64,000 nt of DNA from Dehalococcoidia bacterium (GCA_965207225.1 CBDBLV010000004.1:672001-736000); one strand, 5' to 3'. Shown: positions 36,958-64,000, counted from the stretch's first letter. Translations and numbers: made by a program. The notes: generated by a model not told the origin, from the letters alone.

Positions 36958-37069
36958 CTACAGGTCCAGAACGAGGGTAAGTGTGAAAGTTCTTGATTTT
37001 GTCAAGTCTGGTGGGCCTATTTTGACGGTAGACAGAACCGTCTTCGAATTGAGGCTGGGCAGTCTGTAA
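36958..37069. mobile_element. attL of element C: hybrid site with a stored LSR tail on each strand
   Basis: + strand 37010-37069 GGPILTVDRTVFELRLGSL*; - strand 37011-36958 PDLTKSRTFTLTLVLDL*; core TGGTGG 37009-37014. Confidence 0.9.
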
Positions 37070-37183
37070 ACCCACCGAAACGATGTTGCGTGGTCTCTCT
37101 TGGGCTGCCTACCAGCGTTGCGCCTATCGTGGCTTCCAGCATATTCAATGGGGCGCACGCATTCACAATCCCAGCATTTTGCG

Positions 37184-37606
37184 TCACTCGTGACTGCCTC
37201 TCAGCAGGGCGACGAATCCAGCCTGCTCAAAGTCTCGGTCGTAGGCGAGCGCCTCAGTCAGGTCACGTTCTTCCATTATGAGGAAGCTCGCGCAGTCCGT
37301 TAGGCTCCAGGTCTGATCCTGGCGTGCCTCGTATCGTCCCACCGCTGTCCAAAACTGGTCCTCAGTAAGCCAGACAACCTCAATGCTTGGTCTGCCACGA
37401 AGACTCTTCGCCCATTCAGTTGCACGCTGTCGCATGTACTCGCCACGGGTCGATGCGAAATTGAGTACCTCGACCACAACCATATGGGTCGTGACCAGTT
37501 GGTCCGCGATGGATTCTGAGCTCAAGTCGAGTGCGCGGGCGTGAAGGTCGTCTCGGTTGTCGAGTAGTGCGATCCAATATCCACTGTCAGCGAACACCAC
37601 ACGCAT
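37184..37606 (-). CDS. vapC: PIN-domain toxin
   Basis: 'VFADSGYWIAL...D..H','SLTDCASF..M','D.DF.QAGF'. Confidence 0.9.
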   Translation of the reverse strand: MRVVFADSGYWIALLDNRDDLHARALDLSSESIADQLVTTHMVVVEVLNFASTRGEYMRQRATEWAKSLRGRPSIEVVWLTEDQFWTAVGRYEARQDQTWSLTDCASFLIMEERDLTEALAYDRDFEQAGFVALLRGSHE

Positions 37607-37890
37607 TACGGTTCCTTCTTCGGATGACCGTACATGTAGTGTTTGTAGTTGACAGAGCCATCGGTGGGTCGGTCTCGTCCGTCATCCGGGTACTTCTCAA
37701 TGAGGTGCCTGGCCAACATTGACATGTCTCCGATAGCATTCGCGCCCTTCGCCGCGGCTTGAACGGGAATCTCCTCAATCACCAGGGCCACTTCCGCTCC
37801 CTCGGCAATGTCCAAGGGCTCCAGGGGCGTGAGAACGCCGTTGGAGTACTTGGCCTTCACGTTCGCAATCATGACGCTCCCCTCTGACAT
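37606..37890 (-). CDS. AF2212/DUF104-like antitoxin
   Basis: 'VKAKYSNGVLTPLEPLDIAEGAEV'; coupled to vapC. Confidence 0.85.
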   Translation of the reverse strand: MSEGSVMIANVKAKYSNGVLTPLEPLDIAEGAEVALVIEEIPVQAAAKGANAIGDMSMLARHLIEKYPDDGRDRPTDGSVNYKHYMYGHPKKEP

Positions 37891-38364
37891 GGCTACGGCC
37901 TTCGGGCAACTCTCAGCGTCCTATGTGTGCTCAAGACCGTTCTGCCCTCATCATACTCCTGATGGCTGCTGATCATCAATGGAAACGCTGCCTTTTCTTG
38001 GTCGGCGCTATTGACAACATCCGCTTCGGTGGTTTAAGGTAATAGGTGGATAGTAATGATACTATATCTCAATTATCAACGTAATGGTGGCCTTGCCCAC
38101 TGTCCGTGTCGAGACCGTACCTCGTCAATTGGACGCATACGAAGCTCAATACCAATGATCCGAACGTACTCCACGGTTGGCGACGACGGGAACAATGATA
38201 CTAAGACTCAACACGATGGCGGAAACGATAGCTGACGATTGTGATATCAGTCGTCCCGCACGGAGCAAAACCAGTGTAGAAACACGCACCCGTCTTGGGC
38301 GCGAGGCAAAGAACAACGAACCAACTCGATCTAGATTTCGAAAGCAAGGAAGCTAGGAGAATCG

Positions 38365-39999
38365 ATGAACAGCTTTACCAACGCATCAATGCCCCTGAAA
38401 CTCTTCGGCGTCGTCTTGGCGCTGGCCCTAGTAGCGGTGGCCGCCCTGTTGGTCACCCCCACCTCGGCGCAAAGCCCGGACAACACCTACGACGACCCGC
38501 AGCCTTGTGGGTTCGGCCAAGGCGCATCCACTGCATTCCAGGCCGAACCGCACGAGAAGACCACCGGCCACTACGCACTCTTTGACGCCTACTGGGAGGA
38601 TACGGGGCCGGATCAGGCGCAGACCCCAGGGCTGGACCCTGACCAAACCCCTGACAACACCGGCATCCTGCACACCAACGAGTGCCCGCCGCTGTTGACC
38701 ACCGAAACGCAAGACCTCCAAACCGTAACCACCCTGACCGACTCCGGCGTCGACATCGACGAGCTCATAATCCACGTCGAGAACTCGCGTCAGGCGACTG
38801 TGGTGGAGGGCAATCCGGATGATTTCAGCACCCACCATTTGCGTTTGGACCAGTACCCAGGGGTTCGTGACCACGCCAATGTTGGTGAAAAGGTCTGGTG
38901 GCTGCGGCTGGACGACCCCGACCTCAGCGGGGACCAGAAATCCGACCTCACCCTCGGATTCTCGACGCACCGATTCGACAAGAAGTACTGGACCAAGGTT
39001 AGCTACGAGTTCAGGCTCTTGCGCAACCCCGGCATTGCCCCGGGCGAGCATCCCCACCTCCTCGCCTACCGGGCGCGCCAGTCGGGTGTGCCCGGCGCGA
39101 CCAAGGTCTGGGACAGCGCTGAGGCAGGCATCGCATCCATGGAGATGGCGCCCGGCGAACTCATCAATGACCTACAGTGGGTCTTCACCAAGCCCGGGAC
39201 CTACGAAATATCTGCTCAACCCGTGGGGTACGTGCGCAACAAAAACCCTCACGCTGAAGGCGATGAGGAGTACGACGCGAACTGGAAGGCGATCAGTGCA
39301 AACGTCACCGAGGCCGGCGAGGTGAAAAAGTACGTCATCCACGTGGGGCCTCTCGTCGAGGTGGAGCCGCCACTATTGGGCGTCAGCCGCAGCGTGCCGG
39401 AAAACTCCCCGGCCGGGACCAACGTCGGCGACCCGTTCCTGGTCTACTCGGAAGCGAGTGATCTGGGGTACAGCCTCTCCGGCGTCGGCCACGAAAACTT
39501 CGTAGCAACGGCCACGACCGACGCGGACCCCTACGGCGTCCAAATCAAGGTGGCCGAGGGGGCCAGCCTGGACTACGAGACCAAGGCCACCTATGACCTC
39601 ACCTTGGGAGTGACAAACAAGATCGACCACGAGAGCAATCCCGACCCCACCGTAGACGACACCCTGGTGGTGCGGATCAGTTTGGACGACGTCGCCCCCA
39701 CCGTGAGCCTTGCAGTCGATAATGCCAGCCCGGCGGTGGGTGACACGGTGACCTTTAGGGCGGTGTTCCAACACTTCGAAGAAGTGGGAGAGTATCTGTA
39801 TGATTTCGACAGTCTGTCGAATTCCGATACCCTCACTGGGCGGGTTACCACCAACAACGCCATTGTGTACACCACCACCCGAAATAGCGCCCTAACGGAA
39901 ACTTTCACCTTCAGTGCCACTTACGACGTTGATGATGATGGCTCGAACCGACGTGTCATTCACGCCGAGAATGTCACCGTCACCTGGGGCAACCCGTAG
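38365..39999 (+). CDS. Secreted protein with surface-anchored-repeat-like and cadherin-like domains
   Basis: Signal peptide; 'WVFTKPGTYEI'; 'RSVPENSPAGTNVGDP...LDYETKATYDLT'. Confidence 0.8.
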   Translation: MNSFTNASMPLKLFGVVLALALVAVAALLVTPTSAQSPDNTYDDPQPCGFGQGASTAFQAEPHEKTTGHYALFDAYWEDTGPDQAQTPGLDPDQTPDNTGILHTNECPPLLTTETQDLQTVTTLTDSGVDIDELIIHVENSRQATVVEGNPDDFSTHHLRLDQYPGVRDHANVGEKVWWLRLDDPDLSGDQKSDLTLGFSTHRFDKKYWTKVSYEFRLLRNPGIAPGEHPHLLAYRARQSGVPGATKVWDSAEAGIASMEMAPGELINDLQWVFTKPGTYEISAQPVGYVRNKNPHAEGDEEYDANWKAISANVTEAGEVKKYVIHVGPLVEVEPPLLGVSRSVPENSPAGTNVGDPFLVYSEASDLGYSLSGVGHENFVATATTDADPYGVQIKVAEGASLDYETKATYDLTLGVTNKIDHESNPDPTVDDTLVVRISLDDVAPTVSLAVDNASPAVGDTVTFRAVFQHFEEVGEYLYDFDSLSNSDTLTGRVTTNNAIVYTTTRNSALTETFTFSATYDVDDDGSNRRVIHAENVTVTWGNP

Positions 40000-40005
40000 T
40001 ATCGG

Positions 40006-43000
40006 ATGGCGGTTGCTGTGGCCCTTAGGCTTGTAACGCTGTGCCTGTTTGCAGCGCTGGTCGCCATCGCGACCAGCGCTGCCGAGCCCGCTTTTGCTGC
40101 CCCCTCGCCCCCGGCGAGCAGCATCTCCCTGGACAGTCTGCCGAAGCCAAGAGGAACCTCAAATGTCTGGTGGGAGCTCTTCGTGCGCAACGATCCAGTC
40201 CCCGGTCACCCACCGGCGGCGGCTTATGATGTAGTCGTTCGCATTACCGCCACGGCCAATGGTCAGGAGTACAAGCAGCACACAACTGTTAGCAACCCTT
40301 CATCCGGGTACATTGACCGGGACCGTGGAGTGTGGGTCATCCCCTTTATACCACCGGGGGGCAGCGCTGACGTGATCATTCAGCCCGCAGCATTCTTTCC
40401 TCGATTCAATCAGGATACACCAGTCCGCCTGCACGCTGAATTGGTTTCACATCGTTACCTCGCCAGCGAAGCAGGCAGCCAAGGGAGTATTGAAACCGAG
40501 GATTGGTACATTAGGGCTGCGAATGCTTATCTTTTTGCATGGCCAGGTGCAGAAGTAGGCGTAAGAGTTCGCAGCCTTAACAACAGGGTTCCAGCGTTAG
40601 GTACGCAGACCACGTTTGATGTTCGTGCGATTAATGTACCCTACAATGACCCAGACCCAAGAGTTCTAATAGTACCAAGCAAGCAGATTGGCAAAGTATG
40701 GGATGTGAAGATCAAGATCGATCTTTCGCCGGGGTTGTCTTTAGCTCCCGGATGGACTGCGCCGACCGGCACATCCTTTGACGCCGAAAGCGGTATCTGG
40801 AATGTGGGGTTAATTAGTGGCACAAATACCGGTACGACAATGTCTTTGCCGGTACTCCTCGCCGCGGATAACGTTCCCTTGGAGCAGCGGTGCCTGACGG
40901 CGACGGTGGTGAGCTCCACACCCGACTTCGAGCTGGACCCGGGGGTGCTGGTGAACGACTTCTCCACCGAGTGCCTGGGCGAAGATCCGATATTGAACGA
41001 GGGCGATATTGCTGTTTTCAAGTACGTTTCCTGCGTTGGCCGCACATCTTACCCCTGCACCAGCGATGACACACTGGAATTGGTGGCAAAGCATGAAGCG
41101 GCATTCTGGCAGCCTGAAGATGTCATTGTCCAAGTCAGGGACGTCCAGGGAAGGGTTGAGGCGGGATGGAGCACCGGCAAGACGGCAAGGCACCTTGCTT
41201 CTGTTCCTTCGATCCCTGGTGTTGGTGTCATCTTCGAAGTCATTGATAGCGGGTACAACGCATACACTTTTGCAATTAGCGACGTGGTGCCAAAACAACG
41301 GCCCGGCAAATTTACAGTTGTGGCCGGCAACCAAGGAAACATTACCATCTTGGACGCCGACACAATGCTGTCCGCGGGACCGTACAACCTTAATGAACCA
41401 ATTCCCGCATTAGTAGTTTTCGGCACTTTGGGCACATATAAGGTAAAGATAACCGTTGGGGCTACCAAGTCGGGGACGGCGTACACCGACAGCGGCGTCT
41501 ACACCTTCCACGTGGGGCCGATAGCGGAGCTTGCGGTGCGGGACGGCGGTCGCAGCCCACTGGCGGCGCCGGACCAGCAAGCCTACACCATCCTCGCGGC
41601 CAACAACGGACCAGACGCGGCCTCGGCTGTGGTGGTAACCCTCACAGGCGTACCCCAGGGCGCGGAGGCCATCGTCAGTGGCAGCACCAAGCGCGTGGAC
41701 GACGAAGACGTCAGCGGCAGCGATGGAAGGTACGCGCAGGGCGACTGCGTAGACGGATTCTGCGAAGCCACCTGGACCATCGGAAAGATGTCCGTTTCCT
41801 CTGGCAGGACCTCCATCGGCAAGATGCCCTTCCCCACGCTGACCCTGATCGCCCCGGACGGCGCGTCCACGTCGGGCATTGAGGCCAGCATCGAAAGCAC
41901 CGAGCCCTACTCGGTTACCATCGACGGCACGGTCCACTCCACCGCCTACTTCGACTACATCGATGAGAACAACAGCGCTCACATCGCTGCCCGGGCCGGA
42001 GCCGGCGGGCCAGTGCCGGGAACGCCACAGGACCTGCAAGCGCAGTTCTACACCGTTCCATTCACGACCGCCCTCGTGTGGTGGACCGAGCTTGAGTCGG
42101 TGAACAGCTTCCCTGTGTCCCGCTACGAGGTGTTCACGGAGCGGCCGAATGGTGGAGCCTGCCAGGCGCCGAGTACGGACCAAGCGGGAGAGCGGCTCAC
42201 GGGAACGACGTACGCGGACCGCCGTGCGAAGGAGGGCGAGCTCACGTGCTACTACGTGCGGGCAGTGAATACTCATAAAGTTCCCGGCTACTGGGCGGGG
42301 CCGGTGATGGCGACCGGCGACAGCCCGGACCAGCCGCGGCTGTCGGTGCAGGGAGGCGATCCAGTCGACGAGGGCGACGCCGCCCAATTCACGGTCAGCG
42401 CCTCCCCGGCCCCCGCCGCCGGAGACAGTCTCACCTTTGGCTACACGGTGATCCAGCGTGGCGACTACGTAGCCGACAGAGAGTTGGGCCAGAAGCATGC
42501 AACCATAGGCAACAGCGGCCGCGCCACCATAACCGTCCTCACCGTGGGGAACGATACCGACGACGCCGACGGGGAGATATTCGTCACCCTGAACAACGGC
42601 GAGGGCTACACGGCGTCTTCGGACCGGTCGGCCAGTGTCGAGGTGAGGGACAACGACAATCCCGAGGTGTCCTTCGCCGACGACCCGGCCACGGCCACCG
42701 TGAGCGAGGGAGATGGCGGTTACGACGTGGTGGTCAACCTGGTTCCGGCGCCCCACGCCGCCACCACCATCAGGTACCAGATCGGGGGCGTCGCCGAGGC
42801 CGGCGAGGATTTCACGATCGGCGGCCTGAGCAACGGCTTTGGGTCGGTCTGGGTTGGACCCGGCTCGTCCAGCGTGAACATCCCCGTGCGGCTGATCAAC
42901 GACCGGGAGAGCGAGCAGGAGGATTTCCTGGACATCTACCTGCGCGCGGGAGAGAACTACGACGTGGGAACTCCGTCCCGCTACACGCTGACCATCACCG

Positions 43001-44808
43001 ACAACGACGGCCCCGGGGCGCAGTTCGCCCGGACCGATAGCGAGGTTGGCGAGTCCGACGGGAGCACGACTGTGACCGTCAACCTGGTCCCGGCGCCCAC
43101 CGAGGACGTGACCATAAACTACACCCTTGGCGGCGGCACGGCTCAGAGCGGCGACTACAGCATCGAAGGCTTAACCGGCTCTTCCGGGTCGGTGACGGTC
43201 TCCGCCGGGATCAACAGCGTCGGCATCCCGGTAACCATCAACCCCGACGGCGACTCCGAGCCCGACGAGACGGTGGTGCTGACGCTGGGGAACGGCTCGG
43301 ACTACACCGTCGGGACGACTCGGACGCACACGCTGACCATCCTGGACGACGACCGGCCGCGGGCCAGCTTCGCCTCCGATGCATCCAGCATCATGGAGGC
43401 GGACACCGAGCACCCCGTGAGGGTCAACCTCGACCCTGTGCCCACAGACAACCTGACCCTGAGCTACGGCTTGGCAGGCAGTACGGCCACGCGCAACCGG
43501 GACTACCGGGCGGATGGCACGGTGCAGGTGAACGCAGGCAATGACCACGTTCACATCCCGGTGGAGATCTTCCACAACGGCGAAAGCGAGCCGGACGAGA
43601 CTGTGGTTCTGACGCTGCGGGTCGGCTCGGGAAACAACGTGGGCGAAGAAAGCGTGCATACGCTGACCATCACGGACAACAACCTGCCTATGGTCGCCTT
43701 TGAGACGGCGGAGGGCAGCGTGAGTGAGACGGGCCGCACGCACCGGGCGGTCATCACCCTGGACCCGGCGCCCCACGAGGATCTCACCATCGGCTACACC
43801 GTTGGCGGCACGTCCACGGAGGGAGTGCACGGCCAGCACGGCCCAGGCGACGACTTCACCATCCGTGATTCAGGCACGGTCACGGTCCCGCCCGGACAGA
43901 CTCAGGCCTTCGTGCCGATAACCATCCTCAACGACTCGGACGCCGAGGGAGATGAGACTCTGACGCTGACGTTGACCGGCGGCGACGGCTACGCCCTCGA
44001 TACGTCGGCGAACATCTACGAGCTGACCATCCTGGACGACGACGCGCCGGAGGTATCCTTCACGGCGGCCTCGGGCGAGCCGGGCGAGGGCGCCGGCATG
44101 CACGTGGTGCGGGTCAGGCTGGACGGGCAGACGGACAATCCGGTGACAGTGGGCGTCAGCGTCAGCTTCCCGCCCAATATCGGCTCTGACAGCCCCGCTG
44201 ACCACAGCGCCATTCCCGGCAGCGTTACGATTCCGGCGGGTATGCTTGAAACCGAGATCGAGATAACCATCACCGACGACCCTGACAACGAGGCCGACGA
44301 GGTGGTCGTCCTGACTCTGGAGCCCGGCACGGGGTACTCCCTGTCGCAGGACAAGCCCACGGAGTACACGCTGACCATCGTGGACAACGACGCGGACGAG
44401 AACACCCCGGTGGCCAGTCGCGACCATCCCCATGCCCACGGGCAGGGCTCGACACATTTTGAAGTCTACGAAGGCCATACGCGGATCCCGACGTGGTACG
44501 TGACCGGGAACTTCGCGGGGGATGTGATCTTCCAGTACGTCGGCGGAACGGCGACCCTGGACGAGGACTTCCGCTTGTTCCGCATACAGGGTCAGATCGA
44601 GAAGGTGGGCGACACCTTCACGGTCCGGTCCCTTGACTCCCCCCACGACTCCGACAGGGAAGCGGGCCTCCGTTGGGCCAGGTTCACGTTCGACCCGATA
44701 CGAGACCAGGAGCGGGAAGGCGGCGAGACGGTTATCCTCCGGGTGCTGAACGGCCCGGGCTACACCGTCGAGGAGCCCACCGAGCTCACCATCACCATCA
44801 TTGACTAG
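40006..44808 (+). CDS. Large adhesin-like protein (DUF11-like, FN3, tandem Calx-beta)
   Basis: 'NNGPDAA', FN3 'YYVRAVN', repeats 'D...E.DETVVLTL..G..Y.VG....HTLTI.DDD'. Confidence 0.85.
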   Translation: MAVAVALRLVTLCLFAALVAIATSAAEPAFAAPSPPASSISLDSLPKPRGTSNVWWELFVRNDPVPGHPPAAAYDVVVRITATANGQEYKQHTTVSNPSSGYIDRDRGVWVIPFIPPGGSADVIIQPAAFFPRFNQDTPVRLHAELVSHRYLASEAGSQGSIETEDWYIRAANAYLFAWPGAEVGVRVRSLNNRVPALGTQTTFDVRAINVPYNDPDPRVLIVPSKQIGKVWDVKIKIDLSPGLSLAPGWTAPTGTSFDAESGIWNVGLISGTNTGTTMSLPVLLAADNVPLEQRCLTATVVSSTPDFELDPGVLVNDFSTECLGEDPILNEGDIAVFKYVSCVGRTSYPCTSDDTLELVAKHEAAFWQPEDVIVQVRDVQGRVEAGWSTGKTARHLASVPSIPGVGVIFEVIDSGYNAYTFAISDVVPKQRPGKFTVVAGNQGNITILDADTMLSAGPYNLNEPIPALVVFGTLGTYKVKITVGATKSGTAYTDSGVYTFHVGPIAELAVRDGGRSPLAAPDQQAYTILAANNGPDAASAVVVTLTGVPQGAEAIVSGSTKRVDDEDVSGSDGRYAQGDCVDGFCEATWTIGKMSVSSGRTSIGKMPFPTLTLIAPDGASTSGIEASIESTEPYSVTIDGTVHSTAYFDYIDENNSAHIAARAGAGGPVPGTPQDLQAQFYTVPFTTALVWWTELESVNSFPVSRYEVFTERPNGGACQAPSTDQAGERLTGTTYADRRAKEGELTCYYVRAVNTHKVPGYWAGPVMATGDSPDQPRLSVQGGDPVDEGDAAQFTVSASPAPAAGDSLTFGYTVIQRGDYVADRELGQKHATIGNSGRATITVLTVGNDTDDADGEIFVTLNNGEGYTASSDRSASVEVRDNDNPEVSFADDPATATVSEGDGGYDVVVNLVPAPHAATTIRYQIGGVAEAGEDFTIGGLSNGFGSVWVGPGSSSVNIPVRLINDRESEQEDFLDIYLRAGENYDVGTPSRYTLTITDNDGPGAQFARTDSEVGESDGSTTVTVNLVPAPTEDVTINYTLGGGTAQSGDYSIEGLTGSSGSVTVSAGINSVGIPVTINPDGDSEPDETVVLTLGNGSDYTVGTTRTHTLTILDDDRPRASFASDASSIMEADTEHPVRVNLDPVPTDNLTLSYGLAGSTATRNRDYRADGTVQVNAGNDHVHIPVEIFHNGESEPDETVVLTLRVGSGNNVGEESVHTLTITDNNLPMVAFETAEGSVSETGRTHRAVITLDPAPHEDLTIGYTVGGTSTEGVHGQHGPGDDFTIRDSGTVTVPPGQTQAFVPITILNDSDAEGDETLTLTLTGGDGYALDTSANIYELTILDDDAPEVSFTAASGEPGEGAGMHVVRVRLDGQTDNPVTVGVSVSFPPNIGSDSPADHSAIPGSVTIPAGMLETEIEITITDDPDNEADEVVVLTLEPGTGYSLSQDKPTEYTLTIVDNDADENTPVASRDHPHAHGQGSTHFEVYEGHTRIPTWYVTGNFAGDVIFQYVGGTATLDEDFRLFRIQGQIEKVGDTFTVRSLDSPHDSDREAGLRWARFTFDPIRDQEREGGETVILRVLNGPGYTVEEPTELTITIID

Positions 44809-44939
44809 AAGCAACCGGCCGGCGTCCCCACGGGGGCCATGGGCTGAAGGCGGCAGTTCGGCTGCCGACCATTGGACGCCAACGCGCCGGTGCCGATGCG
44901 GACTTGGTGAAACGCAAAGAGAGCGGGATACATGCCGGT

Positions 44940-44978
44940 AGAGAGGGAGGCCATCCAATTCGGATAGCCTCCCTCTCT
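44940..44978. terminator. Hairpin between convergent genes
   Basis: Perfect 12-bp stem AGAGAGGGAGGC/GCCTCCCTCTCT. Confidence 0.6.
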
Positions 44979-44983
44979 TGTAC

Positions 44984-46141: not shown

Positions 46142-46600
46142 GTCGCTTCTCCTTTCAATGAAGAAGCGGGACGGCCTACCACCCCCGTGGGGTGGAGACA
46201 GTCCCGCTCGAATTGGTTGTCCCGAATGCCGGGACTGTCTCCGTGGGTTTTGTGTTGTCGTTGTGGCCGATGGCCGGCTGCGGCGTCCTCCGTGTCGCTG
46301 TACTGGGCAGGCTCTACGTGGGGAAGCCGTGTGCGGGCAATGTCAGTGCCCGTCGTGCGTTGGGCATAGTTCCTCCTGGGTGGGTGAGTGGATGGGTGGT
46401 GCGGGACTGGGTCCCGCAAGCAAGGGGCGGAGCGGTCAGGCTCCGGCGTGGCAAACGATGTGGAGAGTCGGAACGAGGGGAGCGCTAGCTAGCGGCGCAC
46501 TCGGCCCAAGCAAGCAGGTGTAAGAAGGCAGCGCGTCCTCGCCCGGGTTGCAAGAACAACCGCGCCGCCGATGCGACCGAGGAGGGTGCGGAGAGCCGGG

Positions 46601-50325: not shown

Positions 50326-50328
50326 CTC

Positions 50329-53805: not shown

Positions 53806-56100
53806 GTGAAAGAGTTTTTTCTGAACCTGATGAGAGGCGGAGAGCGGCATCCCTCAGAGGAGGGCGATGTTCAGACGCGCAATGCGAACACCGAAACGAA
53901 GACCCGTTCCACGTCGGAGCCGCCCGCGCCGAAACTCCCGCCCGACCTGCCCCTGTTCTTCATGCTGTCGCACCTGGGCGAGGACGGCCCGGTGCGGCTG
54001 GACGGGGTGCAGCTGGGCGTGTGCGAGGTGATGGGGCTGGAGATCGACGAGCCGAAGCTTGGGGCCTTCGCCGGGGCGCTCAACGCCCTCGACTTCCCGG
54101 TGCAGCTGCTCATGCGCCAGCACCCGCCGCGCCTTGGCGGTCTGCGGGAGAAGCTGCAAGAGGCCCAACCCGACGACCTGCCGCCGCAGACGAGAGCGGC
54201 ATCGGAGTCGCTCAGGCGCCTGCTCACCGACCTAGAGACCCGGGACGGCATCCTGGACCGGCGCTTCTACGCCGTCTGCGAGCACTCCCGTATCGACGAG
54301 CTGCGGGGCCTGCTGGCGAGGGCCGGACTCTCCGTCCACCCCCTCAGGGGCAGGCAGCTTCGAATGTTCCTTGTAGCCGCAGCCCTGGGTGGCTCGCCTG
54401 TTGACGTGGACGAGAACGAAGAGATCGAGGTGCAGGTCAACCGGCGCGACATGCGCATTGGCACGCATCTCATCCGCTCCCTTCACCTGGGCAAGTGGCC
54501 GAGATCGCTGGCCCCGGGGTTCCTGCAAGGACTCATGGCGGCGGGAGCGCCCATGGACCTGTCCATTCATCTGGGGCCGATCCCCGCCGAGCAGGCGGCC
54601 AGGACATTGGAGTGGCAGAAGGTCAGGTTCGAATCGGCGCAGAGTCTCTCGTTCAAGCGTGGCCGCACCATGTCGCCGGAGGCCGAGATCGCCCTGGAGG
54701 ACGTGACAAGGCTCAGGGACGAGGTGCAGAGGGGCAGGGAGCGCCTATTTCACTCCTCTTTATCCGTGACCCTCCACGCGAAGGACGAGGCGTCGCTGAA
54801 GGAGATGACCCAGAGGGCCAAGGCCCATTTTGCCGCCACTCTCGGCAAGCTGGACAACCTGGCGTTCAGGCAGCGGGAGGGGCTGCTATCGACCTTGCCC
54901 CTGGCCCTGAACGCCGTGGCCGAGTGGAGGACCCTGGACACGTCCAGCCTTGCGAGGCTCTTCCCCTTCTCGCCGCCGGACCTGGACACAAGAAGCGGCA
55001 CCCTCTACGGCATCGACATGCGGGCCTGCTCCCCCGTGGTCTACGACCCCTGGGACGGCACCCATCTCAACGCCAACACGGCAGTCCTCGCACGGTCGGG
55101 CAGCGGCAAGTCTTTCGCAACCAAGCTGGGCGTGCTCAGGGGATTGACGCGCGGCGTCACCGCCTACGTCATCGACCCGGAGGGGGAGTACGCGGACATG
55201 GCTCGCGCCGCCGGAGGCCGTGTGCTGTCCCCCGGAGTTGAGGGCCAGGGCATGAACCCCTTCGTCATCGACCGGGGCGACTCCGAGGAGCTGCTCCAGA
55301 GGATCGGGAGCCTGCGCCGTCTGATTGAAGTCATGGTGGGCGAGAGCCTCGGCGCGGAGCGCAGGGCCTCCCTCGACCACGCCCTGGCGGGCTACTACGC
55401 GGAACACCGCGAACGCACCGGCTTCAGGGACTTTTACAAGTATCTCGAAGGGCAGGCCCCGGACATAGCCCACCTGCTGAGGCCCTTCGCCACCGGCAGC
55501 CTCCGCAACCTGCTCTCCGACGAGGGGGACGACCTGCTCGGCAACGAGGCGTTGGTCACCGTCTTCGATCTTCGCCTCCTCGAACCAGAGCTGAGGCCCG
55601 CAGCGGCGATGGTCTGCACCGAGACGGTGTGGGCGGCGGCCGCCCAGAACCCCAAGCCGAGGCTGCTGGTGGTGGACGAGGTATGGAGCATCATGCAGCA
55701 CCCCGAGGGCGCGGCCTTCATGGTGTCTATGGCGAAACGCGCCAGGAAACACCGGCTGGGGCTTCAGTTCATCACCCAGGACGTCCAGGACCTTTTGTCC
55801 GAGGACTCGTCGAGGACCATCACCGGCCATTCGGGGAGGGCGCTTCTCCAGAACGCCGCCTTCAAGCTGCTCTTGCAGCAGGACGCGGCGGCCATAGGCA
55901 CCGTGGGCGACGCGTTCGACCTGCCCGAAGACCTCCAGCGCTGGCTGCTGTCGTGTCCCCGTGGGGACGGACTGTTGCTGGCGAAGGGACACCGCTTCCC
56001 CGTCCGCATCGAGGCCACCCCGGAGGAAACGGAGGTCATCGAGTGGAGGCCGGGCGGACACCGACAGAGAGGCGAGAACGCAGAAGAGACCCATACGTAG
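53806..56100 (+). CDS. virB4: VirB4-like T4SS ATPase
   Basis: ARSGSGKS, VIDPEGEY, LLVVDE, KRARK, ITQD. Confidence 0.9.
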   Translation: MKEFFLNLMRGGERHPSEEGDVQTRNANTETKTRSTSEPPAPKLPPDLPLFFMLSHLGEDGPVRLDGVQLGVCEVMGLEIDEPKLGAFAGALNALDFPVQLLMRQHPPRLGGLREKLQEAQPDDLPPQTRAASESLRRLLTDLETRDGILDRRFYAVCEHSRIDELRGLLARAGLSVHPLRGRQLRMFLVAAALGGSPVDVDENEEIEVQVNRRDMRIGTHLIRSLHLGKWPRSLAPGFLQGLMAAGAPMDLSIHLGPIPAEQAARTLEWQKVRFESAQSLSFKRGRTMSPEAEIALEDVTRLRDEVQRGRERLFHSSLSVTLHAKDEASLKEMTQRAKAHFAATLGKLDNLAFRQREGLLSTLPLALNAVAEWRTLDTSSLARLFPFSPPDLDTRSGTLYGIDMRACSPVVYDPWDGTHLNANTAVLARSGSGKSFATKLGVLRGLTRGVTAYVIDPEGEYADMARAAGGRVLSPGVEGQGMNPFVIDRGDSEELLQRIGSLRRLIEVMVGESLGAERRASLDHALAGYYAEHRERTGFRDFYKYLEGQAPDIAHLLRPFATGSLRNLLSDEGDDLLGNEALVTVFDLRLLEPELRPAAAMVCTETVWAAAAQNPKPRLLVVDEVWSIMQHPEGAAFMVSMAKRARKHRLGLQFITQDVQDLLSEDSSRTITGHSGRALLQNAAFKLLLQQDAAAIGTVGDAFDLPEDLQRWLLSCPRGDGLLLAKGHRFPVRIEATPEETEVIEWRPGGHRQRGENAEETHT

Positions 56101-56115
56101 GGAGGAGTAACAGAA

Positions 56116-58647
56116 ATGAAACAGAACCCGATACGCAAACTATTTGGAAGCGACGACAAGACCCCGGCGCTGCTTGCGGTGACGCCGCCGAGGACGGGCG
56201 AGCGGACGTTGCTGGGCGTGGAGAACCTCCTCCAGTCCATCGCGGTGCCTGAGCCCTTCTCCCTGGAGCTTGCCGGGGACATGGACGGCGTGACGCTGAT
56301 GGCCCGGTGCATCGACGACCGGGTGGTACGCGGCCAGATCTCCGCCCACTACCCCCAGGCCAGGATAGAGAAGGTGGACCCAAACAACGATCCCTTGCGC
56401 CTGGGAGACGGCGAGCAGGCGTGGTCGATGACGCTCAGGGCCGACGGCCCCGAGTATGTCCCCCTGCGCACCTTCCGCGACGACGACCTCCTCGACCCCG
56501 GCTCCGACCCCCTCATCGCCCTCATGGGCGCTCTGTCGTCCCTCTACGAGGGGGAGCGGATTGTGGCTCAACTCAAGCTGAACTCCCTCGGTCCCGACTG
56601 GTCGCAGCACCATCTGGAAAAGGCCCACAAACGGCCCGGCCAGGAGCAGCGGGAGCCCTCCTACACCTACCAGACCAAGCCCCTCCAGATGGACGGGGTG
56701 ACCATGGCCGTGCTCGGCGTCGGCGCTCTCGCCGCCCTCCAGGGCTACCTGTGGGTGCAGGACGGGGAGACGTGGAAAGCCGTGCTGCTGGGCATGGGCG
56801 TTGCCCTGGGCCTTACCGCTGGCGGCTGGGCATGGCACCGCTTCAAGAAAGCCCGCAATCGGGTCGATGACCCGTTGCTCATCAGGGAGAAGGTCTCCCG
56901 CATCGCCTTCGACGCAGAGATACAGGTGACGGCGATCATGCCGGACGACACGGGGCGCGAGCGGGCCGAGGAGCTCCTCAGAAGGGTTGCCGCCGCCTAC
57001 CGGCACTTCGACAACCCGGCAGGGGCGAGGTTCAAGGTGAGCAAGGTAAGGCCCGTCGCTCCCGCCCCGGAGAACCTGCATCCCACAGGCCCCGGCCTGT
57101 TCGGCAGGCGCAGCGTCCTGGGGGTGCGGGAGGCCGCCTGCCTCTGGCACCCGCCGGGAGCGGGGAACGAGACGCCGTTGGTGGAGCGGTCCGGCGCACG
57201 GGCGCTCAGCCCGTCGGCGAAGGGAGTCAGGGGCGGCGCGCTGGTGGGCGACACCACGGCGGGTACCAAGAGGGAGATCAGATTCCCCGACGACCTGCTG
57301 CGCCGTCACCACCTCTACGTGGCCCGCACCCGCATGGGCAAGTCCACGCTGATGCACCACGTGGTCGTTCACAAGATGCGGGAGAAGGCGGCGGGCAGGG
57401 ACGAAGACGCCATCGTCGTCATAGACCCCCACACCGACCTGGTGGCGGGCATCCTCGAACACGTCCCGGAGGAGATAGCCGACAGGGTGAGGCTGATAGA
57501 CCTGTCGGACGCGAGCCGTTCCCCCGGCGTCAATCTGCTGGACACCCGCATATTCGCAGACCGGGACCGCACCGCCGACTCGGTGGTGCGGGTGGCCAAG
57601 GGCCTCTGGGACCAGTGGGGGCCGAGGATGCAATCGATCCTGGAACAGACCGTCAAGACGCTGCACGAGGCCAACGAGCAGATGGAGGCCGAGCAGCAGT
57701 ACACCATCCTCGACGGCCTGAAGCTGCTCTCGGACGATGAGTTCGCCAAGCAGGTGCGCAAGAGGGTCTCCGACCCCTACCTGCTGGAGTGGTGGGCCAG
57801 GGACTTCGGCAAGTGGGGCCGCCAGTACAAGGCGGAGGCCCTGGCCCCCGTCCAGACCCGTCTCTCCTACTACGCATCGTCCAAGCGGGCCAGGGCCATC
57901 CTGGGACAGCGCCGCTCCACCATCGACCTGAGAAGGACCATCCACGACGGCGGCGTGCTGCTGGTCTCCACCTCCCAGGGGGTCGTGGGCAGGGACGTGG
58001 CCGCCCTGGTGGGCGCGTCGCTCCTGAACCTGGTGGACGCCGTGATACGGGAGCAGGGAAGTCTATCTCTCAGGGAACGTCGCGGCGCGCTGGTCGTCGT
58101 GGACGAGATGCAGTCCATGCCCGGCGTGGACTACGAGTCGATGCTCAGCGAGCTTGGGAAGTTCGGGGCGTCCTTCATCCTCGCCACCCAGAGCCTGGCA
58201 AAGCTGGACGACCTCTCCCGCACCATGCGGGACACCATCCTCGCCAACGTGGGGTGCCTCGCCGTCTTCCAGGTGGCCGGCTCAGACGCCAGGACCCTGG
58301 TGTGGGAGCTTGGCAAGGACCGGGTGTCCGAGGACGACATCGTGTCCCTGCCCGTGCACCACTGCTACGTCCGCGCCACCGTGGGCACCGAGCGGATGCC
58401 CGCCTTCTCGATGGAGGTCAGGAAGCCTGAGGAAGGAGACCCATCGGTCGCCGACCGCATACGTGCAGCTACGCAAGGCTACACCGTCTCGGCCCGCCAG
58501 GGAGACTACGCCGACGCCGAGGGCCACGGGAAGGTGGACGAATTTCACAAAGGCGTCGAGGCATTGGAGCAGGCCGAACGGGAGGAGAACGACGAGCAGG
58601 CGACCGAGAACCACACCGACGAAGAGGACGAGGAGGTCGGAGAATGA
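56116..58647 (+). CDS. virD4: VirD4/TraD-like coupling protein
   Basis: ARTRMGKS, VIDPH, VVDEMQ, 'ATQSLAKL','ILANVG'. Confidence 0.85.
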   Translation: MKQNPIRKLFGSDDKTPALLAVTPPRTGERTLLGVENLLQSIAVPEPFSLELAGDMDGVTLMARCIDDRVVRGQISAHYPQARIEKVDPNNDPLRLGDGEQAWSMTLRADGPEYVPLRTFRDDDLLDPGSDPLIALMGALSSLYEGERIVAQLKLNSLGPDWSQHHLEKAHKRPGQEQREPSYTYQTKPLQMDGVTMAVLGVGALAALQGYLWVQDGETWKAVLLGMGVALGLTAGGWAWHRFKKARNRVDDPLLIREKVSRIAFDAEIQVTAIMPDDTGRERAEELLRRVAAAYRHFDNPAGARFKVSKVRPVAPAPENLHPTGPGLFGRRSVLGVREAACLWHPPGAGNETPLVERSGARALSPSAKGVRGGALVGDTTAGTKREIRFPDDLLRRHHLYVARTRMGKSTLMHHVVVHKMREKAAGRDEDAIVVIDPHTDLVAGILEHVPEEIADRVRLIDLSDASRSPGVNLLDTRIFADRDRTADSVVRVAKGLWDQWGPRMQSILEQTVKTLHEANEQMEAEQQYTILDGLKLLSDDEFAKQVRKRVSDPYLLEWWARDFGKWGRQYKAEALAPVQTRLSYYASSKRARAILGQRRSTIDLRRTIHDGGVLLVSTSQGVVGRDVAALVGASLLNLVDAVIREQGSLSLRERRGALVVVDEMQSMPGVDYESMLSELGKFGASFILATQSLAKLDDLSRTMRDTILANVGCLAVFQVAGSDARTLVWELGKDRVSEDDIVSLPVHHCYVRATVGTERMPAFSMEVRKPEEGDPSVADRIRAATQGYTVSARQGDYADAEGHGKVDEFHKGVEALEQAEREENDEQATENHTDEEDEEVGE

Positions 58648-60305: not shown

Positions 60306-60627
60306 ACGACGCAGGGAGCGGCGCGAAAACTCCCGCTCAATACCCGATAGGAGATGGAAAGCCGATGCGTTCACCGGATAACGATATAGCAAGAGGCCCC
60401 CGGAGGAGCGGAGGACGGAGCGCCGTCCGGCTCGACGCGGCGGCTCTGGGAGACGGCTCACTTCGGTGATCACCTCCCGGAACCGGCCCGCCGGGGTCGA
60501 TACAGACAGACCCGGTCCCATGTCGAAGTCGGCGCGTGGGGAGCGACCGCCCTCCGGTCGCATCCGCCGCCGGATGCACATGGCCTTGGGAACAACAACC
60601 CAAAGCTTTACGACATGGAGGATAGAC

Positions 60628-60918
60628 ATGACCAACATCGATCACATCGACGGATGGAGCGAGATGGAGCCCCTTCAGGGCGCCGACATGCCCGAGGACT
60701 TCCCCCAGCGGCTCGTGCGCCTCAAGGAGGCCAGCGGCCTCTCCTGGCGCGGCCTGTGCAGGGTCACCGGCATCGACTACAAGCTGCTGCGAAGGTGGCT
60801 CAAGGGCTGGGCGCCCAGCGGAGGCTCCATGCTCACCCTGGTCATCTTCGCCAACCGCATCGGATGCCTTCCGATCCTCCTGGGGGAGGAGCTACGGATG
60901 ACCCACTTCAGGAGCTAG
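60628..60918 (+). CDS. XRE HTH regulator
   Basis: 'RLKEASGLSWRGLCRVTGIDYKLLRRWLKG..P'; GGAGG RBS. Confidence 0.8.
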   Translation: MTNIDHIDGWSEMEPLQGADMPEDFPQRLVRLKEASGLSWRGLCRVTGIDYKLLRRWLKGWAPSGGSMLTLVIFANRIGCLPILLGEELRMTHFRS

Positions 60919-61084
60919 CCGGCACCCCCCGCCGGCGCCCTAACCGGCGCATCGGCGGCGCGGCGGGGTAGGACACCACAACGCCGCCGGGCGCTCGCAC
61001 CCATCCGTCCGTGCCCGGCGGCCACCCAATACACCTGTAACGAGAGGCCAGCGGCCCAACGAACCGCCGCTGAGATTAGGCAAC

Positions 61085-61303
61085 ATGAAAGACACCAATA
61101 GAGAAGATACGAGGAACCGGCAAAAGAAGAGGCTGGGGAGGGATGCTCCCGAGTCATCCTCCGACAGGCCGATGGAGTCCTATACTCCTCAGCAGCGAAG
61201 GACGATACGCAAGGGGCTGCGCATCCTGGCCAAGGTCGCCGTCCGCGCCCACATGCGCAGGAACGCGGCTCACTCAGAGGATGACGGCGAGGGCAGGCGG
61301 TGA
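61085..61303 (+). CDS. Small conserved ICE protein (candidate directionality factor)
   Basis: Paralog of 22196-22435; upstream of LSR. Confidence 0.7.
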   Translation: MKDTNREDTRNRQKKRLGRDAPESSSDRPMESYTPQQRRTIRKGLRILAKVAVRAHMRRNAAHSEDDGEGRR

Positions 61304-61364
61304 ACGTCCCGCCCAACCTTGTCCCCGGCAGACTCGTTGGAGATGGCCGCGTGAAGCTAGCATC

Positions 61365-61393
61365 TTGGCATAGCACGAAAGCCGTGCTATTAT
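61365..61393 (+). promoter_or_regulatory. higBA promoter/operator; leaderless transcript
   Basis: TTGGCA-17 bp-TATTAT; perfect inverted repeat ATAGCACG/CGTGCTAT; ATG at 61400. Confidence 0.75.
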
Positions 61394-61399
61394 GTACTT

Positions 61400-61693
61400 A
61401 TGATTGTCTCATTCAGAGACGGCGGTACAGAGGACATCTTCAACGGGCAATCCACTCAAGCGGCCCTGCGGGCATGTCCCATGCCGATATGGGGAGTGGC
61501 TCATCGAAAGCTTGACCAGATCGATTCCGCCTCCGTTCTGGGAGACCTCAGAATACCTCCCGGCAACCGCCTGGAACGGCTGGCCGGAGATCGAAGCGGG
61601 CAACACGGTATTCGCGTCAACGACAGGTATCGAATCTGCTTCACGTGGACACCTGCCGGACCCGCCGACGTCGAAATCACCGACTATCACTGA
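61400..61693 (+). CDS. higB: HigB toxin
   Basis: 'MIVSFRD','DLRIPPGNRLE.L.GDR.GQH.IRVND.YRICF.W','DVEITDYH'. Confidence 0.95.
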   Translation: MIVSFRDGGTEDIFNGQSTQAALRACPMPIWGVAHRKLDQIDSASVLGDLRIPPGNRLERLAGDRSGQHGIRVNDRYRICFTWTPAGPADVEITDYH

Positions 61694-61701
61694 AGAGGAG
61701 A

Positions 61702-62067
61702 ATGAGCATGGTACGCATTCCCACCGATCGAGAGCCTACGCATCCGGGCGAGATGCTTCTGACGGAGTTCCTGCTGCCCCTCGGAATGACTCAGCGCGAC
61801 CTGTCCAATGCCATTCACGTGCCCTATCAGAGGGTCAACGAAGTCGTCCGAGGGAAGCGGGGGGTCACGCCAAGCACCGCCCTGAGGCTCTCTAGGTTCT
61901 TCGGCACTTCGCCCGGCTTTTGGATGAACCTGCAACTCCGTTGGGACCTCTACCACGCCGAGCGTTCCGAGGCTGAACAGATCGAGGGCATCCTTCCGCG
62001 TGAAATGGTCAGCGCGCTTGGGGAAGACACGGGTTCGATGACGACGATGCCGGGTGTTGCAGGCTAG
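61702..62067 (+). CDS. higA: HigA antitoxin
   Basis: 'PTHPGEML..EFL.PLG','TALRLSRFFGTSPGFWMNLQ..WDL'. Confidence 0.95.
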   Translation: MSMVRIPTDREPTHPGEMLLTEFLLPLGMTQRDLSNAIHVPYQRVNEVVRGKRGVTPSTALRLSRFFGTSPGFWMNLQLRWDLYHAERSEAEQIEGILPREMVSALGEDTGSMTTMPGVAG

Positions 62068-62111
62068 TAGTGGCCCACGGGAACGACAGGAAACAGGAGG
62101 AGGACTCACAG

Positions 62112-64000
62112 ATGAACAATAGAAGCGACTACACCCCCGTGGCCCTCTACGCCAGGGTCTCCAGCGACAGACAGGACGTGGACCTGTCCGTGGCCGCACA
62201 GTTGCGGGCGCTCAGGGAATACGCCCAGAAGAACGACTACGTGGTCGTCCGCGAGTACGTGGACGAGGCCGAGAGCGGGCGCGTCGCCGACCGCCCGGAG
62301 TTCCGCAAGATGATCGACGAGGTCGCCAAGCCCGAGGCCCCGTTTAGAAAAATCCTTGTGTGGAAATTTAGTAGATTCACCAGAAAGCGCGAGCACGCCG
62401 TCGCCTTCAAGTCCATGCTCAGGCGAAAGGGCGTCCGCGTCGTCTCCATCACCGAGCAGGCCGACGACACCGCCACCGGCAGGCTCCTTGAGGGCATCAT
62501 CGAGTCCGTCGATGAGTTTTACTCGGAAAATCTTGCGGAAGAGGTTCGCCGTGGGATGCGGGAGGCCGCTTCCAGAGGCTTCTGGGTCGCCAGCCGGACG
62601 CCCTACGGCTACAACCGCGTCATGGTGCAGGACGGAGCCAAGAAGCGGCCCACACTGGAGATCGACCCTGACACTGCTCCCGTCGTCAAGCGCATCTTCG
62701 ACATGGCCGAGTCGGCCACCGGGATGACCGAAATCACCCGCACACTCAACGGCGAGGGCATCGCCAGCGCCACCGGCAAGCTCTGGTCCAAGAACGGCGT
62801 CCACTTCATCCTCAGAAACGAGGTCTACACGGGCACGCTGCTCTGGGGCACTACAGGGAAGGTCAAGTCCGACCCCGTACGCATAGAGAAGGCGTTCCCC
62901 GCCGTCGTCTCCAAGGCCCAATTCAACCGCGTCAAGCGGCTCATGCGCTCCCGCGCCCCCAAAAGGAACCACCCCCGCAGGGTGGGAAGCTCCTACCTGC
63001 TCAGCGGGCTGGTCAGGTGCAAGTCCTGCAACAGGGCGCTCTCAGGCCAGGACGCCAAGAGCGGCCAGTTCGCCTACTACGTCTGCCAGTCCATCATGAA
63101 GCGGGGCAAGAACGCTTGCACGACCCCCAGGCTCAACGCACGACGCTTCGAGGAGATGGTGGTGGAGAGGATACGGGAGAACGTCCTCACCGAGTCCAAC
63201 ATCACCGAACTGGTCAAGATAGTGGACGAGGAGATGGATGGGGTCGCCGCCGAGCAGCGGCAGAAGCTGGAGACCATCGAGGCCGAGCTTGATGAGGTCA
63301 AGCGCAAGCTGGGCCGCGTCTGGCACCTGGTGGAGAACACCGACCTCGACATGGCCGACGCCTCGGAACGCATCAGGGAGCACCGGGAGCGTCAACAGCG
63401 CCTTGAGGACTCGGCGGCCGAGGCCAGGACCATCCTCTCCCAGCGCAGGGAGGTGCTGGACGACGTGGAGACCATCGCGGCCTATGCCCAGGACATGAGC
63501 GAGTTCCTGAAGGAGAGCGAACTGACCGAGCGCAGGGCCTTCATCGAGTCTTTCGTCAAGGAGATCGTCGTCATGCCCGACAACGCCCTCCTCCGGTACA
63601 CCATCCCCATGCCTCAGGATGGACCGGTAGGAGGGAGAAACGCCGAGGAGATGGCCCTGAACGGCTCGGTTCTGTCTACCGTCAAAAATGGTGGACTGGA
63701 CTTGACGAAATCAAGAACCGAGGCCGATTCCTTCGTCACGCCGTCGCTGGGCATGGGGACCGTGTACGTCAGGGTCGCCTCGTCTCCGACCACCTCGATA
63801 CTCTCAACGAAGTTGCGGATGAGCGCCTTGCGCTCGGGGATCGTCCCTTCCTTCAGGAACTCCCTGAAGTCCGCCACGTACTCCCGAATCACGTCGGTTG
63901 TGGGCAGTTCCACCCTGCGCTGCTCAAGTCGGGTCTCCGCGTCCTCCCGCGCAGCCTCAAGCTGCTCCTCGCGGTGCCTTAGAGACATGATGCGGGGCGA
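62112..64000 (+). CDS. Large serine recombinase 1 (own sequence ends at att ~63694; no stop codon within window)
   Basis: Absent from ORF track. MNNRSDYTPVALYARVSSDRQD, 'FSRFTR', 'PYGY', Zn ribbon 'CKSC...YYVC...C', coiled coil. Confidence 0.95.
   Translation, partial: MNNRSDYTPVALYARVSSDRQDVDLSVAAQLRALREYAQKNDYVVVREYVDEAESGRVADRPEFRKMIDEVAKPEAPFRKILVWKFSRFTRKREHAVAFKSMLRRKGVRVVSITEQADDTATGRLLEGIIESVDEFYSENLAEEVRRGMREAASRGFWVASRTPYGYNRVMVQDGAKKRPTLEIDPDTAPVVKRIFDMAESATGMTEITRTLNGEGIASATGKLWSKNGVHFILRNEVYTGTLLWGTTGKVKSDPVRIEKAFPAVVSKAQFNRVKRLMRSRAPKRNHPRRVGSSYLLSGLVRCKSCNRALSGQDAKSGQFAYYVCQSIMKRGKNACTTPRLNARRFEEMVVERIRENVLTESNITELVKIVDEEMDGVAAEQRQKLETIEAELDEVKRKLGRVWHLVENTDLDMADASERIREHRERQQRLEDSAAEARTILSQRREVLDDVETIAAYAQDMSEFLKESELTERRAFIESFVKEIVVMPDNALLRYTIPMPQDGPVGGRNAEEMALNGSVLSTVKNGGLDLTKSRTEADSFVTPSLGMGTVYVRVASSPTTSILSTKLRMSALRSGIVPSFRNSLKSATYSRITSVVGSSTLRCSSRVSASSRAASSCSSRCLRDMMRG
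63614..64000 (-). CDS. C-terminus of large serine recombinase 2 (element D, continues beyond window)
   Basis: 'EFLKEGTIPERKALIRNFVESIEV...LTYTVPMP.DG' matches LSR1 'EFLKESELTERRAFIESFVKEIVV...RYTIPMPQDG'. Confidence 0.85.
   Translation of the reverse strand, partial: SPRIMSLRHREEQLEAAREDAETRLEQRRVELPTTDVIREYVADFREFLKEGTIPERKALIRNFVESIEVVGDEATLTYTVPMPSDGVTKESASVLDFVKSSPPFLTVDRTEPFRAISSAFLPPTGPS
63667..63719. mobile_element. attR of element C, overlapping both LSR coding ends
   Basis: Left arm is the exact reverse complement of 37020-37040; right arm 63699-63718 is a 19/20 reverse complement of 36989-37008; core TGGTGG. Confidence 0.92.

Follow-up and report, generated by a model that had tools for sequence, protein, structure and literature searches.

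A Dehalococcoidia conjugative element with a predicted attachment site inside the 3' end of its large serine recombinase gene and a conserved C-terminal tail stored at its opposite end

What becomes of a large serine recombinase when the site at which it exchanges strands lies inside its own gene? This question is raised by LSR1, a large serine recombinase (LSR) gene at one end of an integrated element in a sponge-associated Dehalococcoidia bacterium. The DNA analyzed was a stretch of 64,000 nucleotides (GCA_965207225.1 CBDBLV010000004.1:672001-736000), which as a whole is called the window and to which all positions refer unless a contig is named; the genome amounts to 4.03 Mb, and the contigs cited from it are labelled C1 to C5. 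An earlier note on the same DNA had claimed that the attachment (att) site lies within the open reading frame (ORF) of LSR1, that joining positions 63694 and 37015 would restore the true tail and stop codon of the gene, and that circular and integrated DNA encode different recombinases.

The hexanucleotide TGGTGG is present at 63689-63694 and again at 37009-37014. Joining position 63694 to 37015 by coordinates, using a script, led to a site in which two perfect inverted arms of 21 nt surround a 12-nt spacer with GG at its centre, and to an in-frame tail with a stop codon that completes a protein of 545 amino acids, so that the join proposed earlier is correct to the base. By reasoning, the chance of finding 21 of 21 complementary bases over a join of places 26.7 kb apart is about 4^-21. 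The reciprocal join of 37014 and 63695 gave a near-palindrome with arms of 20 nt (1 mismatch), a spacer of 10 nt and the same central GG, and inverted arms around a non-palindromic GG that is central in both the joined and the reciprocal site mark these places as att sites (Table 1). Within the window, the 18-nt arm occurs without mismatches only at the two core sites, and at the acceptor end of the LSR1 element the identity is 6 bp.

When the 26,680-bp segment was compared with the genome by BLAST, at least five other full or partial copies were detected, and in every copy that reaches an end the similarity breaks off exactly at element position 1 or 26680 (copies ending at C1:177753 and C4:892737 or starting at C3:11517 and C5:379126). 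The element ends are therefore fixed independently of the palindrome. One further full copy (C5:2003429-2032347) shows 95-97% identity, partial copies are found on C1, C2, C3 and C5, and a 10.7-kb right end that runs off contig C4 is 100% identical; such near-identical copies indicate that the element moved recently. The segment 37015-63694 is a well-delimited, integrated, multi-copy conjugative element. The contig ends C2:3, C3:1 and C4:903396 fall within copies of it, and this repeat is therefore one cause of the fragmented assembly.

Domains above the Pfam cut-offs (PF00239, 118 bits; PF07508, 74 bits; PF13408, 45.5 bits) identify LSR1 as a large serine recombinase, and only serine-recombinase domains and no tyrosine recombinase fold were found in it. 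Starting from the ATG at 62112 (an in-frame GTG is located at 62070), the frame remains open past 63694 to the end of the window and meets its first genomic stop at window position 64041, 41 nt beyond the window. The integrated form of LSR1 would comprise 643 amino acids from the ATG, including 116 codons read antisense through a neighbouring recombinase gene, LSR2, whereas the joined frame of the circular form has 18 codons after the crossover and then a stop. Coordinates and translation thus bear out the claim of an att crossover within the recombinase ORF and predict different C-termini for circular and integrated DNA (545 versus 643 amino acids). As judged from these data, the LSR1 crossover is the GG dinucleotide located 18 codons before the natural end of the gene. 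The circular form is predicted to encode the 545-residue enzyme with a conserved tail and the integrated form an enzyme that ends in whatever the target supplies; the last 18 codons alone would be exchanged, leaving the catalytic and DNA-binding domains intact.

Restoration of the target gave, on the minus strand, an open frame of 573 codons (stop to stop) with a paralogous large serine recombinase, LSR2, which is 58% identical to LSR1. Its crossover lies 18 codons before the LSR2 stop, and the tail pattern of the restored LSR2 is that of LSR1. The predicted target is hence a homologous palindromic site in the 3' end of LSR2 and not an ordinary host gene; no tRNA or tmRNA gene is present within the 64-kb window. 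In the integrated state, each gene runs antisense into the other with an overlap of about 430 nt in the window, and in addition to the foreign codons gained by LSR1, LSR2 gains 26. As the target is located within a paralogous recombinase gene, one crossover strips both natural tails and excision would restore both. Inversion of 37015-63694 as a source of the arrangement was ruled out by reasoning, since it would place the LSR2 tail behind the LSR1 body and leave both genes unrestored. The identity of the target as a site in a paralogous recombinase, the spread of the arrangement throughout the family and a precedent published in 2011, the latter two described below, are points beyond the earlier note.

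Is this arrangement peculiar to one element? A tblastn search, in which paralogs were counted where the match reaches the C-terminal region, revealed 33 LSR paralogs in the genome, which share the C-terminal position of the crossover. For 29 of them a regular expression finds a conserved body motif that ends at the crossover, with sequences beyond it that differ between copies; the tails of the remaining four were read by eye. According to arm sequence and core strand, the paralogs are classified into types A1 (4, including LSR1), A2 (9) and C, which have GG on the sense strand, and types B (13, including LSR2) and A3, which have CC on the sense strand. At six of the 33 junctions the element abuts the 3' end of a tRNA gene (Ile, Lys, Ala, Met and twice Val; for example tRNA-Ile at C1:177682-177758 and tRNA-Val at C5:1036504-1036580), and as the tRNA ends 6 nt past the junction, the element core supplies the last six tRNA bases. 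Fourteen of the paralogs face each other as seven convergent A-B pairs, and A-B junctions of the tail-to-tail kind occur at six other places in the genome. Types with opposite cores (GG versus CC) are joined body-to-body and tail-to-tail in 7/7 pairs and types with the same core give body-tail hybrids, a rule that is demanded by the non-palindromic central dinucleotide. Copies of the A2 type, all 78-80% identical to LSR1, sit at genes for tRNA-Lys, tRNA-Ala, tRNA-Met and tRNA-Val, and the A2 recombinase therefore seems to recognize common features of tRNA 3' ends and not one gene.

In other genomes, the 80 best loci from a collection of species representatives were studied, all of them from metagenome-assembled genomes titled Dehalococcoidia, Chloroflexi/Chloroflexota or Tepidiformaceae. 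Junctions were placed from the tblastn match, and the crossover motif was found by regular expression in 57 of these 80. Beyond the junction there was a convergent tRNA gene in 26 cases (Val 7, Ala 6, Ile 5, Met 4, Lys 3, Arg 1), a convergent recombinase gene in 20, a tail of at most 22 residues in 17 and something else in 17. Reading by eye of the 120 LSR1 homologs listed, a count less reliable than the DNA-based one over the 80 loci, gave about 25 tails antisense of a convergent recombinase, 22 tails of the natural type and roughly 40 antisense of a tRNA. Relatives in three small complete genomes of the class (43-47% identical) read into tRNA-Val, tRNA-Ala and tRNA-Asn genes, and by eye representatives at 30-45% identity also end in apparent tRNA antisense. 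Homologs thus read past the att site and do not stop before it, and the location of the crossover in the 3' end of the recombinase gene is a family-wide property. Members of the family use the 3' ends of a variety of tRNA genes as insertion sites, a habit that was called rare for serine recombinases in a 2011 survey (PMC3218068).

Among the LSR2-type homologs listed, a cognate B-type tail was found in 6 of 120 proteins, and these six bodies with cognate tails are candidates for unoccupied targets. Automatic tail classes for LSR2-type homologs are crude, the class 'A-arm tail' (44) mixing short natural tails with antisense read-through. Many B-type bodies carry unrelated tails and yet show an R-T pair two codons nearer to the crossover than in natural tails; read by eye, these nearer pairs would correspond to ordinary B-type attB half-sites. 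The homolog P0089 has a 21-residue tandem duplication in the catalytic domain, seen as a 21-column insertion in the alignment, which is either real or an assembly error. In another genome (L081 1500-1550; G220:C1:993138-993187), a perfect palindrome with 14-nt arms constitutes a tail-to-tail junction that is flanked by two transposase-like ORFs, with no recombinase nearby.

The arms also differ in geometry. All element-borne arms have an outer GTTC-type motif at 22-26 from the centre and a T-(T/G)-GAC motif at 9-13, and by reading, the tRNA targets of the paralogs share an outer GAACC motif (T-loop) that is 6 bp nearer to the centre than in the element arms. According to a recent preprint, the outer (zinc-ribbon) motif of attB half-sites is 4-5 bp closer to the centre than that of attP (10.1101/2025.01.03.631226), a shift that the position of the motif in the tRNA targets would fit.

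Is the stored tail itself conserved? The genome contains 10 distinct A-type tails (17 copies), 13 distinct B-type and 2 C-type tails; that of LSR1 is found identically at 4 places, with related tails at 13 more. Most tails comprise 17 to 18 residues from the central codon, with the exception of one A-type variant (5 copies) of 24 residues and another of 13. They follow the pattern x-x-(L/T)-T-x-x-R-T, continue with alternating hydrophobic residues and finish with a non-polar last residue. Tails align across A, C and hybrid proteins of other genomes, and their length and hydrophobic pattern are kept in A, B and C types. The tail of the form P-x-L-T-x-x-R-T-hydrophobic, which the earlier note had predicted for homologs, is present in the relatives and conserved in the homolog alignment. 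For A-type tails, codons 1-9, within the presumed half-site, gave a proportion of synonymous changes (pS) of 0.235 and a ratio of replacement to synonymous changes (pN/pS) of 0.93, as low synonymous change would be expected under DNA-binding constraint, codons 10 onward gave a pS of 0.79 and a pN of 0.20 (ratio 0.25), and for B-type tails, in which hydrophobic positions are kept, pN/pS was 0.58, all of these values being uncorrected sums over non-independent pairs of short sequences without a significance test. The distal codons change in the manner of a coding sequence under purifying selection, from which we infer that the tail contributes to the function of the circular-form enzyme. The new point here is a stored tail that keeps its length and pattern and whose distal codons bear this likely signature of purifying selection. 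In the tail arm of LSR1, a possible 6-bp stem with a 7-nt loop (37024-37042) is reminiscent of a tRNA T-arm; it is probably incidental and is not kept in A2-type tails.

How much of this has been described before? In its basic form, the phenomenon has been published for a distant relative, DsiB of Dehalococcoides. According to McMurdie et al. 2011 (PMC3146451), the 3' end of the DsiB ORF invariably overlaps the att site, with a stop only outside the island, and the authors considered that full function of the enzyme may be confined to the circle, or to a position beside another island that supplies the 3' fragment. DsiB-like recombinases and LSR1 are alike in their position at the island edge, in the overlap of the 3' ORF end with att and in a stop outside the island, and DsiB islands also share a tRNA-like 3'-end target and tandem arrays with the LSR1 family (PMC3146451). 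In contrast, DsiB islands integrate at the tmRNA gene ssrA, whereas the LSR1 element sits in a paralogous recombinase gene and its paralogs in tRNA genes. The DsiB crossover was placed in the T-loop with a 20-bp repeat (PMC3146451), compared to the 6-bp identity for the LSR1 element. DsiB islands have a small second recombinase (DsiA) and no conjugation genes, whereas the LSR1 element has VirB4-, coupling- and relaxase-like genes and a HigB-like/helix-turn-helix (HTH) pair upstream of its recombinase. The DsiB paper calls the C-terminal part divergent, and in its accessible text a conserved stored tail is not reported (PMC3146451). In a 1.5-Mb genome of the class (L096 4158-4510 and L097; G055:C1:1372000-1410000), a convergent serine recombinase ORF extends with its 3' end over a tmRNA gene, and a second copy of this recombinase is located about 27 kb further, a layout that matches the published DsiB island arrays. 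The DsiB-like protein beside that tmRNA gene is 28% identical to LSR1 over LSR1 residues 13-323 (N-terminal 311 residues), and at so low an identity LSR1 is placed in a separate clade that shares this habit.

For IntP/IntX of myxophage Mx8, attP is described within the integrase coding sequence, and integration gives a new 3' end and altered specificity (PMC6070905). Mx8 resembles LSR1 in having att inside the recombinase gene and differs from it in being a phage with a tyrosine recombinase. In the Mx8 paper of 1996, a much larger C-terminal part is reportedly replaced. Archaeal 'suicidal' (SSV1-type) integrases, described as exclusive to archaea, likewise have att within the integrase gene, which is split and inactivated (PMC8371274); these are tyrosine recombinases, whereas LSR1 is a serine recombinase of which only 18 codons are exchanged. 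In mycobacteriophage BPs, attP is inside a coding sequence, the viral and prophage forms of the protein differ, and removal of a C-terminal tag acts as a switch (PMC3694055). It is the repressor that is rewritten in BPs, which has a tyrosine integrase, whereas LSR1 rewrites the recombinase itself. In the part of the literature that was covered, there was no report of a conserved stored serine-recombinase tail and none of serine-recombinase elements inserting into each other's att sites; the terms 'tRNA' and 'within the LSR' are absent from the Durrant preprint. Insertion into each other's att sites can explain nested, repeat-rich islands that break sponge-associated assemblies.

What might the tail do? 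An AlphaFold2 model of P0110, an 80%-identical relative with a cognate tail, was obtained with 51 sequences and had a mean predicted local distance difference test (pLDDT) score of 79, and a second run with 20 natural-tail sequences, the first of which was a genomic paralog with the window's own tail, had a mean pLDDT of 63 and again left the tail unplaced, at pLDDT <50. Structure prediction for tail-bearing relatives, suggested by the earlier note as a check, therefore yielded a modelled body and, in P0110, a tail (residues 529-550) with pLDDT <50, an outcome that weighs neither for nor against the proposed change between isoforms. In the P0110 model, long paired helices (368-416 and 422-452) between zinc-ribbon strands are predicted to form a coiled-coil insertion. 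In electron cryomicroscopy structures of SPbeta integrase, the C-terminus, including two phenylalanines, repositions and contacts the recombination directionality factor (RDF) beside the coiled-coil hinge (10.1101/2025.01.03.631226), and the same preprint cites Abe et al. 2021 for the extreme C-terminus as a possible 'molecular toggle switch'. As the SPbeta integrase SprA is a large serine recombinase like LSR1, a C-terminal swap is plausible as a change of directionality, although the C-terminus of SprA, unlike that of LSR1, is not exchanged by recombination.

The explanation that we favour overall, with some but by no means full confidence, is a conjugative element with a self-split LSR1, a paralogous gene as its target and a tail that works in the circular-form enzyme. 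By analogy to SprA, the tail might help to set the coiled-coil hinge of the zinc-ribbon domain, and its loss on integration might change directionality or RDF dependence; this is the mechanism we prefer, and we put it forward tentatively. The functional reading offered earlier, in which the isoform swap acts as a directionality or stability switch, remains plausible. An extended version, which as a whole we regard as unlikely, would have the circle-only tail hold the hinge in integration mode and the post-integration enzyme carry out attL x attR recombination without an RDF or with a different one; the preferred paralog target would reprogram two recombinases, co-resident elements could immobilize or license each other, and recombination between two attP-like sites may need the two enzymes together. 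Directionality of large serine recombinases is a live structural question and the enzymes are used as genome-engineering tools, and a C-terminus exchanged by recombination, with a conserved tail and two ready-made isoforms, offers a direct test of whether this segment sets directionality.

Several observations weigh against the favoured explanation. Neither AlphaFold2 model shows a docking site for the tail, and in a PDB sequence search the alignment of P0110 to solved SPbeta integrase chains spans residues 66-382 only and stops short of the C-termini, which are thus at most candidates for equivalent segments. Integrated forms carry arbitrary tails of 2 to >100 residues, and together with the recent movement of the element this implies that a tail-less enzyme, or one acting in trans, must still be able to excise. 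The pN/pS ratios are sums of the uncorrected kind described above, and the B-type value is weak. A two-arm pattern with a gap for the intact body-tail site had no match in metagenome contigs of a collection that probably lacks these organisms, since nearly all homologs listed are from ENA or NCBI sources, and a search for the intact site or the circle in 401 genomes of the class gave a single match, the tail-tail junction at L081 described above, which lies between IS elements. Furthermore, the window's own target has, by reading, the long attP-like spacing on both halves, so that formally two attP-like sites recombined; in the canonical model, attP-like geometry is not paired with attP, and the history of the locus may involve accretion steps rather than a single integration.

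The last point leads to the view that a single attP x attB event does not account for the arrangement, which would instead represent the inner junction of a tandem or nested array built by successive insertions at one target; the restored LSR2 would then be a hybrid derived from two B-type elements. Besides the spacing of the target halves, the copy at C5:2003429-2032347 has LSR2-type DNA on one side only and a B-type tail 11 kb further, as in a tandem array, orphan tails occur in the window (9915-9972 and about 35104-35160), and tandem islands have been described for DsiB elements (PMC3146451). However, the six B-type bodies with cognate tails among the 120 homologs listed make an intact target plausible, and body-body junctions with a convergent recombinase are common, with 7 in the genome and 20 among the 80 best loci elsewhere. 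We therefore consider such a history doubtful, if worth keeping in mind, and as it concerns the origin of the locus only, the two isoforms would be unaffected by it. A mis-joining of repeats that created chimeric junctions during assembly is highly improbable: the three contig ends within element copies show that repeats did break the assembly, but these types of junction are found again in numerous assemblies made independently, among them records titled complete chromosomes, and the junctions are base-exact with matching reciprocal halves.

With regard to function, the binding site might merely happen to extend over the final codons of a C-terminus that is ordinary and of mild use, a neutral compaction in which the isoforms behave alike and no switch exists. 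Copies with arbitrary tails belong to recently mobile elements and the tail has no confident place in the AlphaFold models, as would be expected in that case; McMurdie et al. list a 'trivial explanation' for DsiB (PMC3146451), and a review of archaeal integrases regards att inside int as a compact exchangeable module (PMC8371274). We nevertheless see neutral overlap as possible rather than probable, because distal tail codons, located outside the half-site of about 26 bp, show many synonymous and few replacement changes in the A type, and because length and hydrophobic pattern persist across the three types. A hydrophobic C-terminus might instead serve as a degradation signal or as protection, giving the circular form a short lifetime and the integrated form a long one, or vice versa. 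The conserved alternating pattern covers about 10 residues, whereas typical C-terminal tags are shorter, which makes a stability switch rather unlikely. It would agree with the non-polar end of every natural tail and the lack of structure of the tail in the models, and in phage BPs integration strips a C-terminal tag from Rep, with Int also being C-terminally destabilized (PMC3694055). Finally, the effect might be exerted at the RNA level, as the integrated recombinase gene runs head-on into a tRNA gene or LSR2, and convergent transcription with loss of the 3' end would lower expression, the protein tail being incidental. Recombinase and target are convergent at tRNA sites in 6/6 cases in this genome and in 26/26 in other genomes, and LSR1 and LSR2 overlap antisense over about 430 nt in the window, as given above. 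Such an effect seems improbable as the full answer, since it leaves the conservation of the tail at the protein level unexplained and no terminator-like site was found past the natural stop of LSR1, where the predicted fold is unremarkable (z -0.42).

As for gene content, Pfam analysis detected an integrase, a VirB4-type ATPase, a coupling protein and a borderline relaxase between the att sites, which by genes alone makes the segment an integrative and conjugative element (ICE). No second recombinase was seen among the element ORFs scanned. The element also encodes a multi-HTH regulator and two toxin-antitoxin-like pairs, one near either end. Coordinates are given in Table 1.

Table 1. Positions of the element, its att sites, the two recombinase genes and other genes within the window.
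Feature	Position	Strand	Basis or remark
Integrated ICE-like element, 26,680 bp	37015..63694	+	Joined ends palindromic; other copies lose similarity at its ends
attL: LSR2 tail arm, TGGTGG core (37009-37014), LSR1 tail arm	36985..37041	.	
attR: LSR1 body arm, TGGTGG core (63689-63694), LSR2 body arm	63664..63723	.	
LSR1 body up to central GG (527 codons + 2 nt)	62112..63694	+	Pfam Resolvase, Recombinase, Zn_ribbon_recom
Stored natural tail of LSR1, 18 codons from central GG + stop	37013..37069	+	In frame after join
Integrated-state LSR1 extension, antisense through LSR2, stop at 64041	63695..64000	+	
3' part of LSR2, B-type paralog	63693..64000	-	Gene start outside window at C4:737287; integrated-state end at 63614
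Stored natural tail of LSR2, 18 codons + stop	36958..37014	-	One of 13 distinct B-type tails
VirB4/TraC-like conjugation ATPase	53806..56100	+	Pfam P-loop_TraG, AAA_10, TraC_F_IV
Type IV coupling protein-like ATPase	56116..58647	+	TrwB_AAD_bind above cut-off; TraG-D_C just below cut-off
Putative relaxase/replication-relaxation protein, N-terminal winged helix	58644..60305	+	Replic_Relax 25.7 bits versus cut-off 25.3, borderline
HigB-like toxin and HTH antitoxin-like pair, directly upstream of LSR1	61400..62067	+	Pfam
PIN-domain and AF2212-like pair (toxin-antitoxin-like), tail end of element	37184..37890	-	Pfam
Cargo protein, 1600 aa, five Calx-beta repeats	40006..44808	+	Pfam

Outside the element, the window contains two further tails. 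At 9915-9972, a TGGTGG core precedes an A-type natural tail with its stop codon, there is no adjoining recombinase body, and the GC content drops exactly there from about 0.70 to 0.53-0.60; this place probably marks the outer limit of a composite island occupying most of the window. On the minus strand at 35104-35160, an orphan B-type tail with a 9-nt insertion in its core lies 1.85 kb left of attL, and the 1.8 kb between this tail and attL hold a single ORF (35607-36611, minus strand), whose holin-like match is weak and lies below the cut-off.

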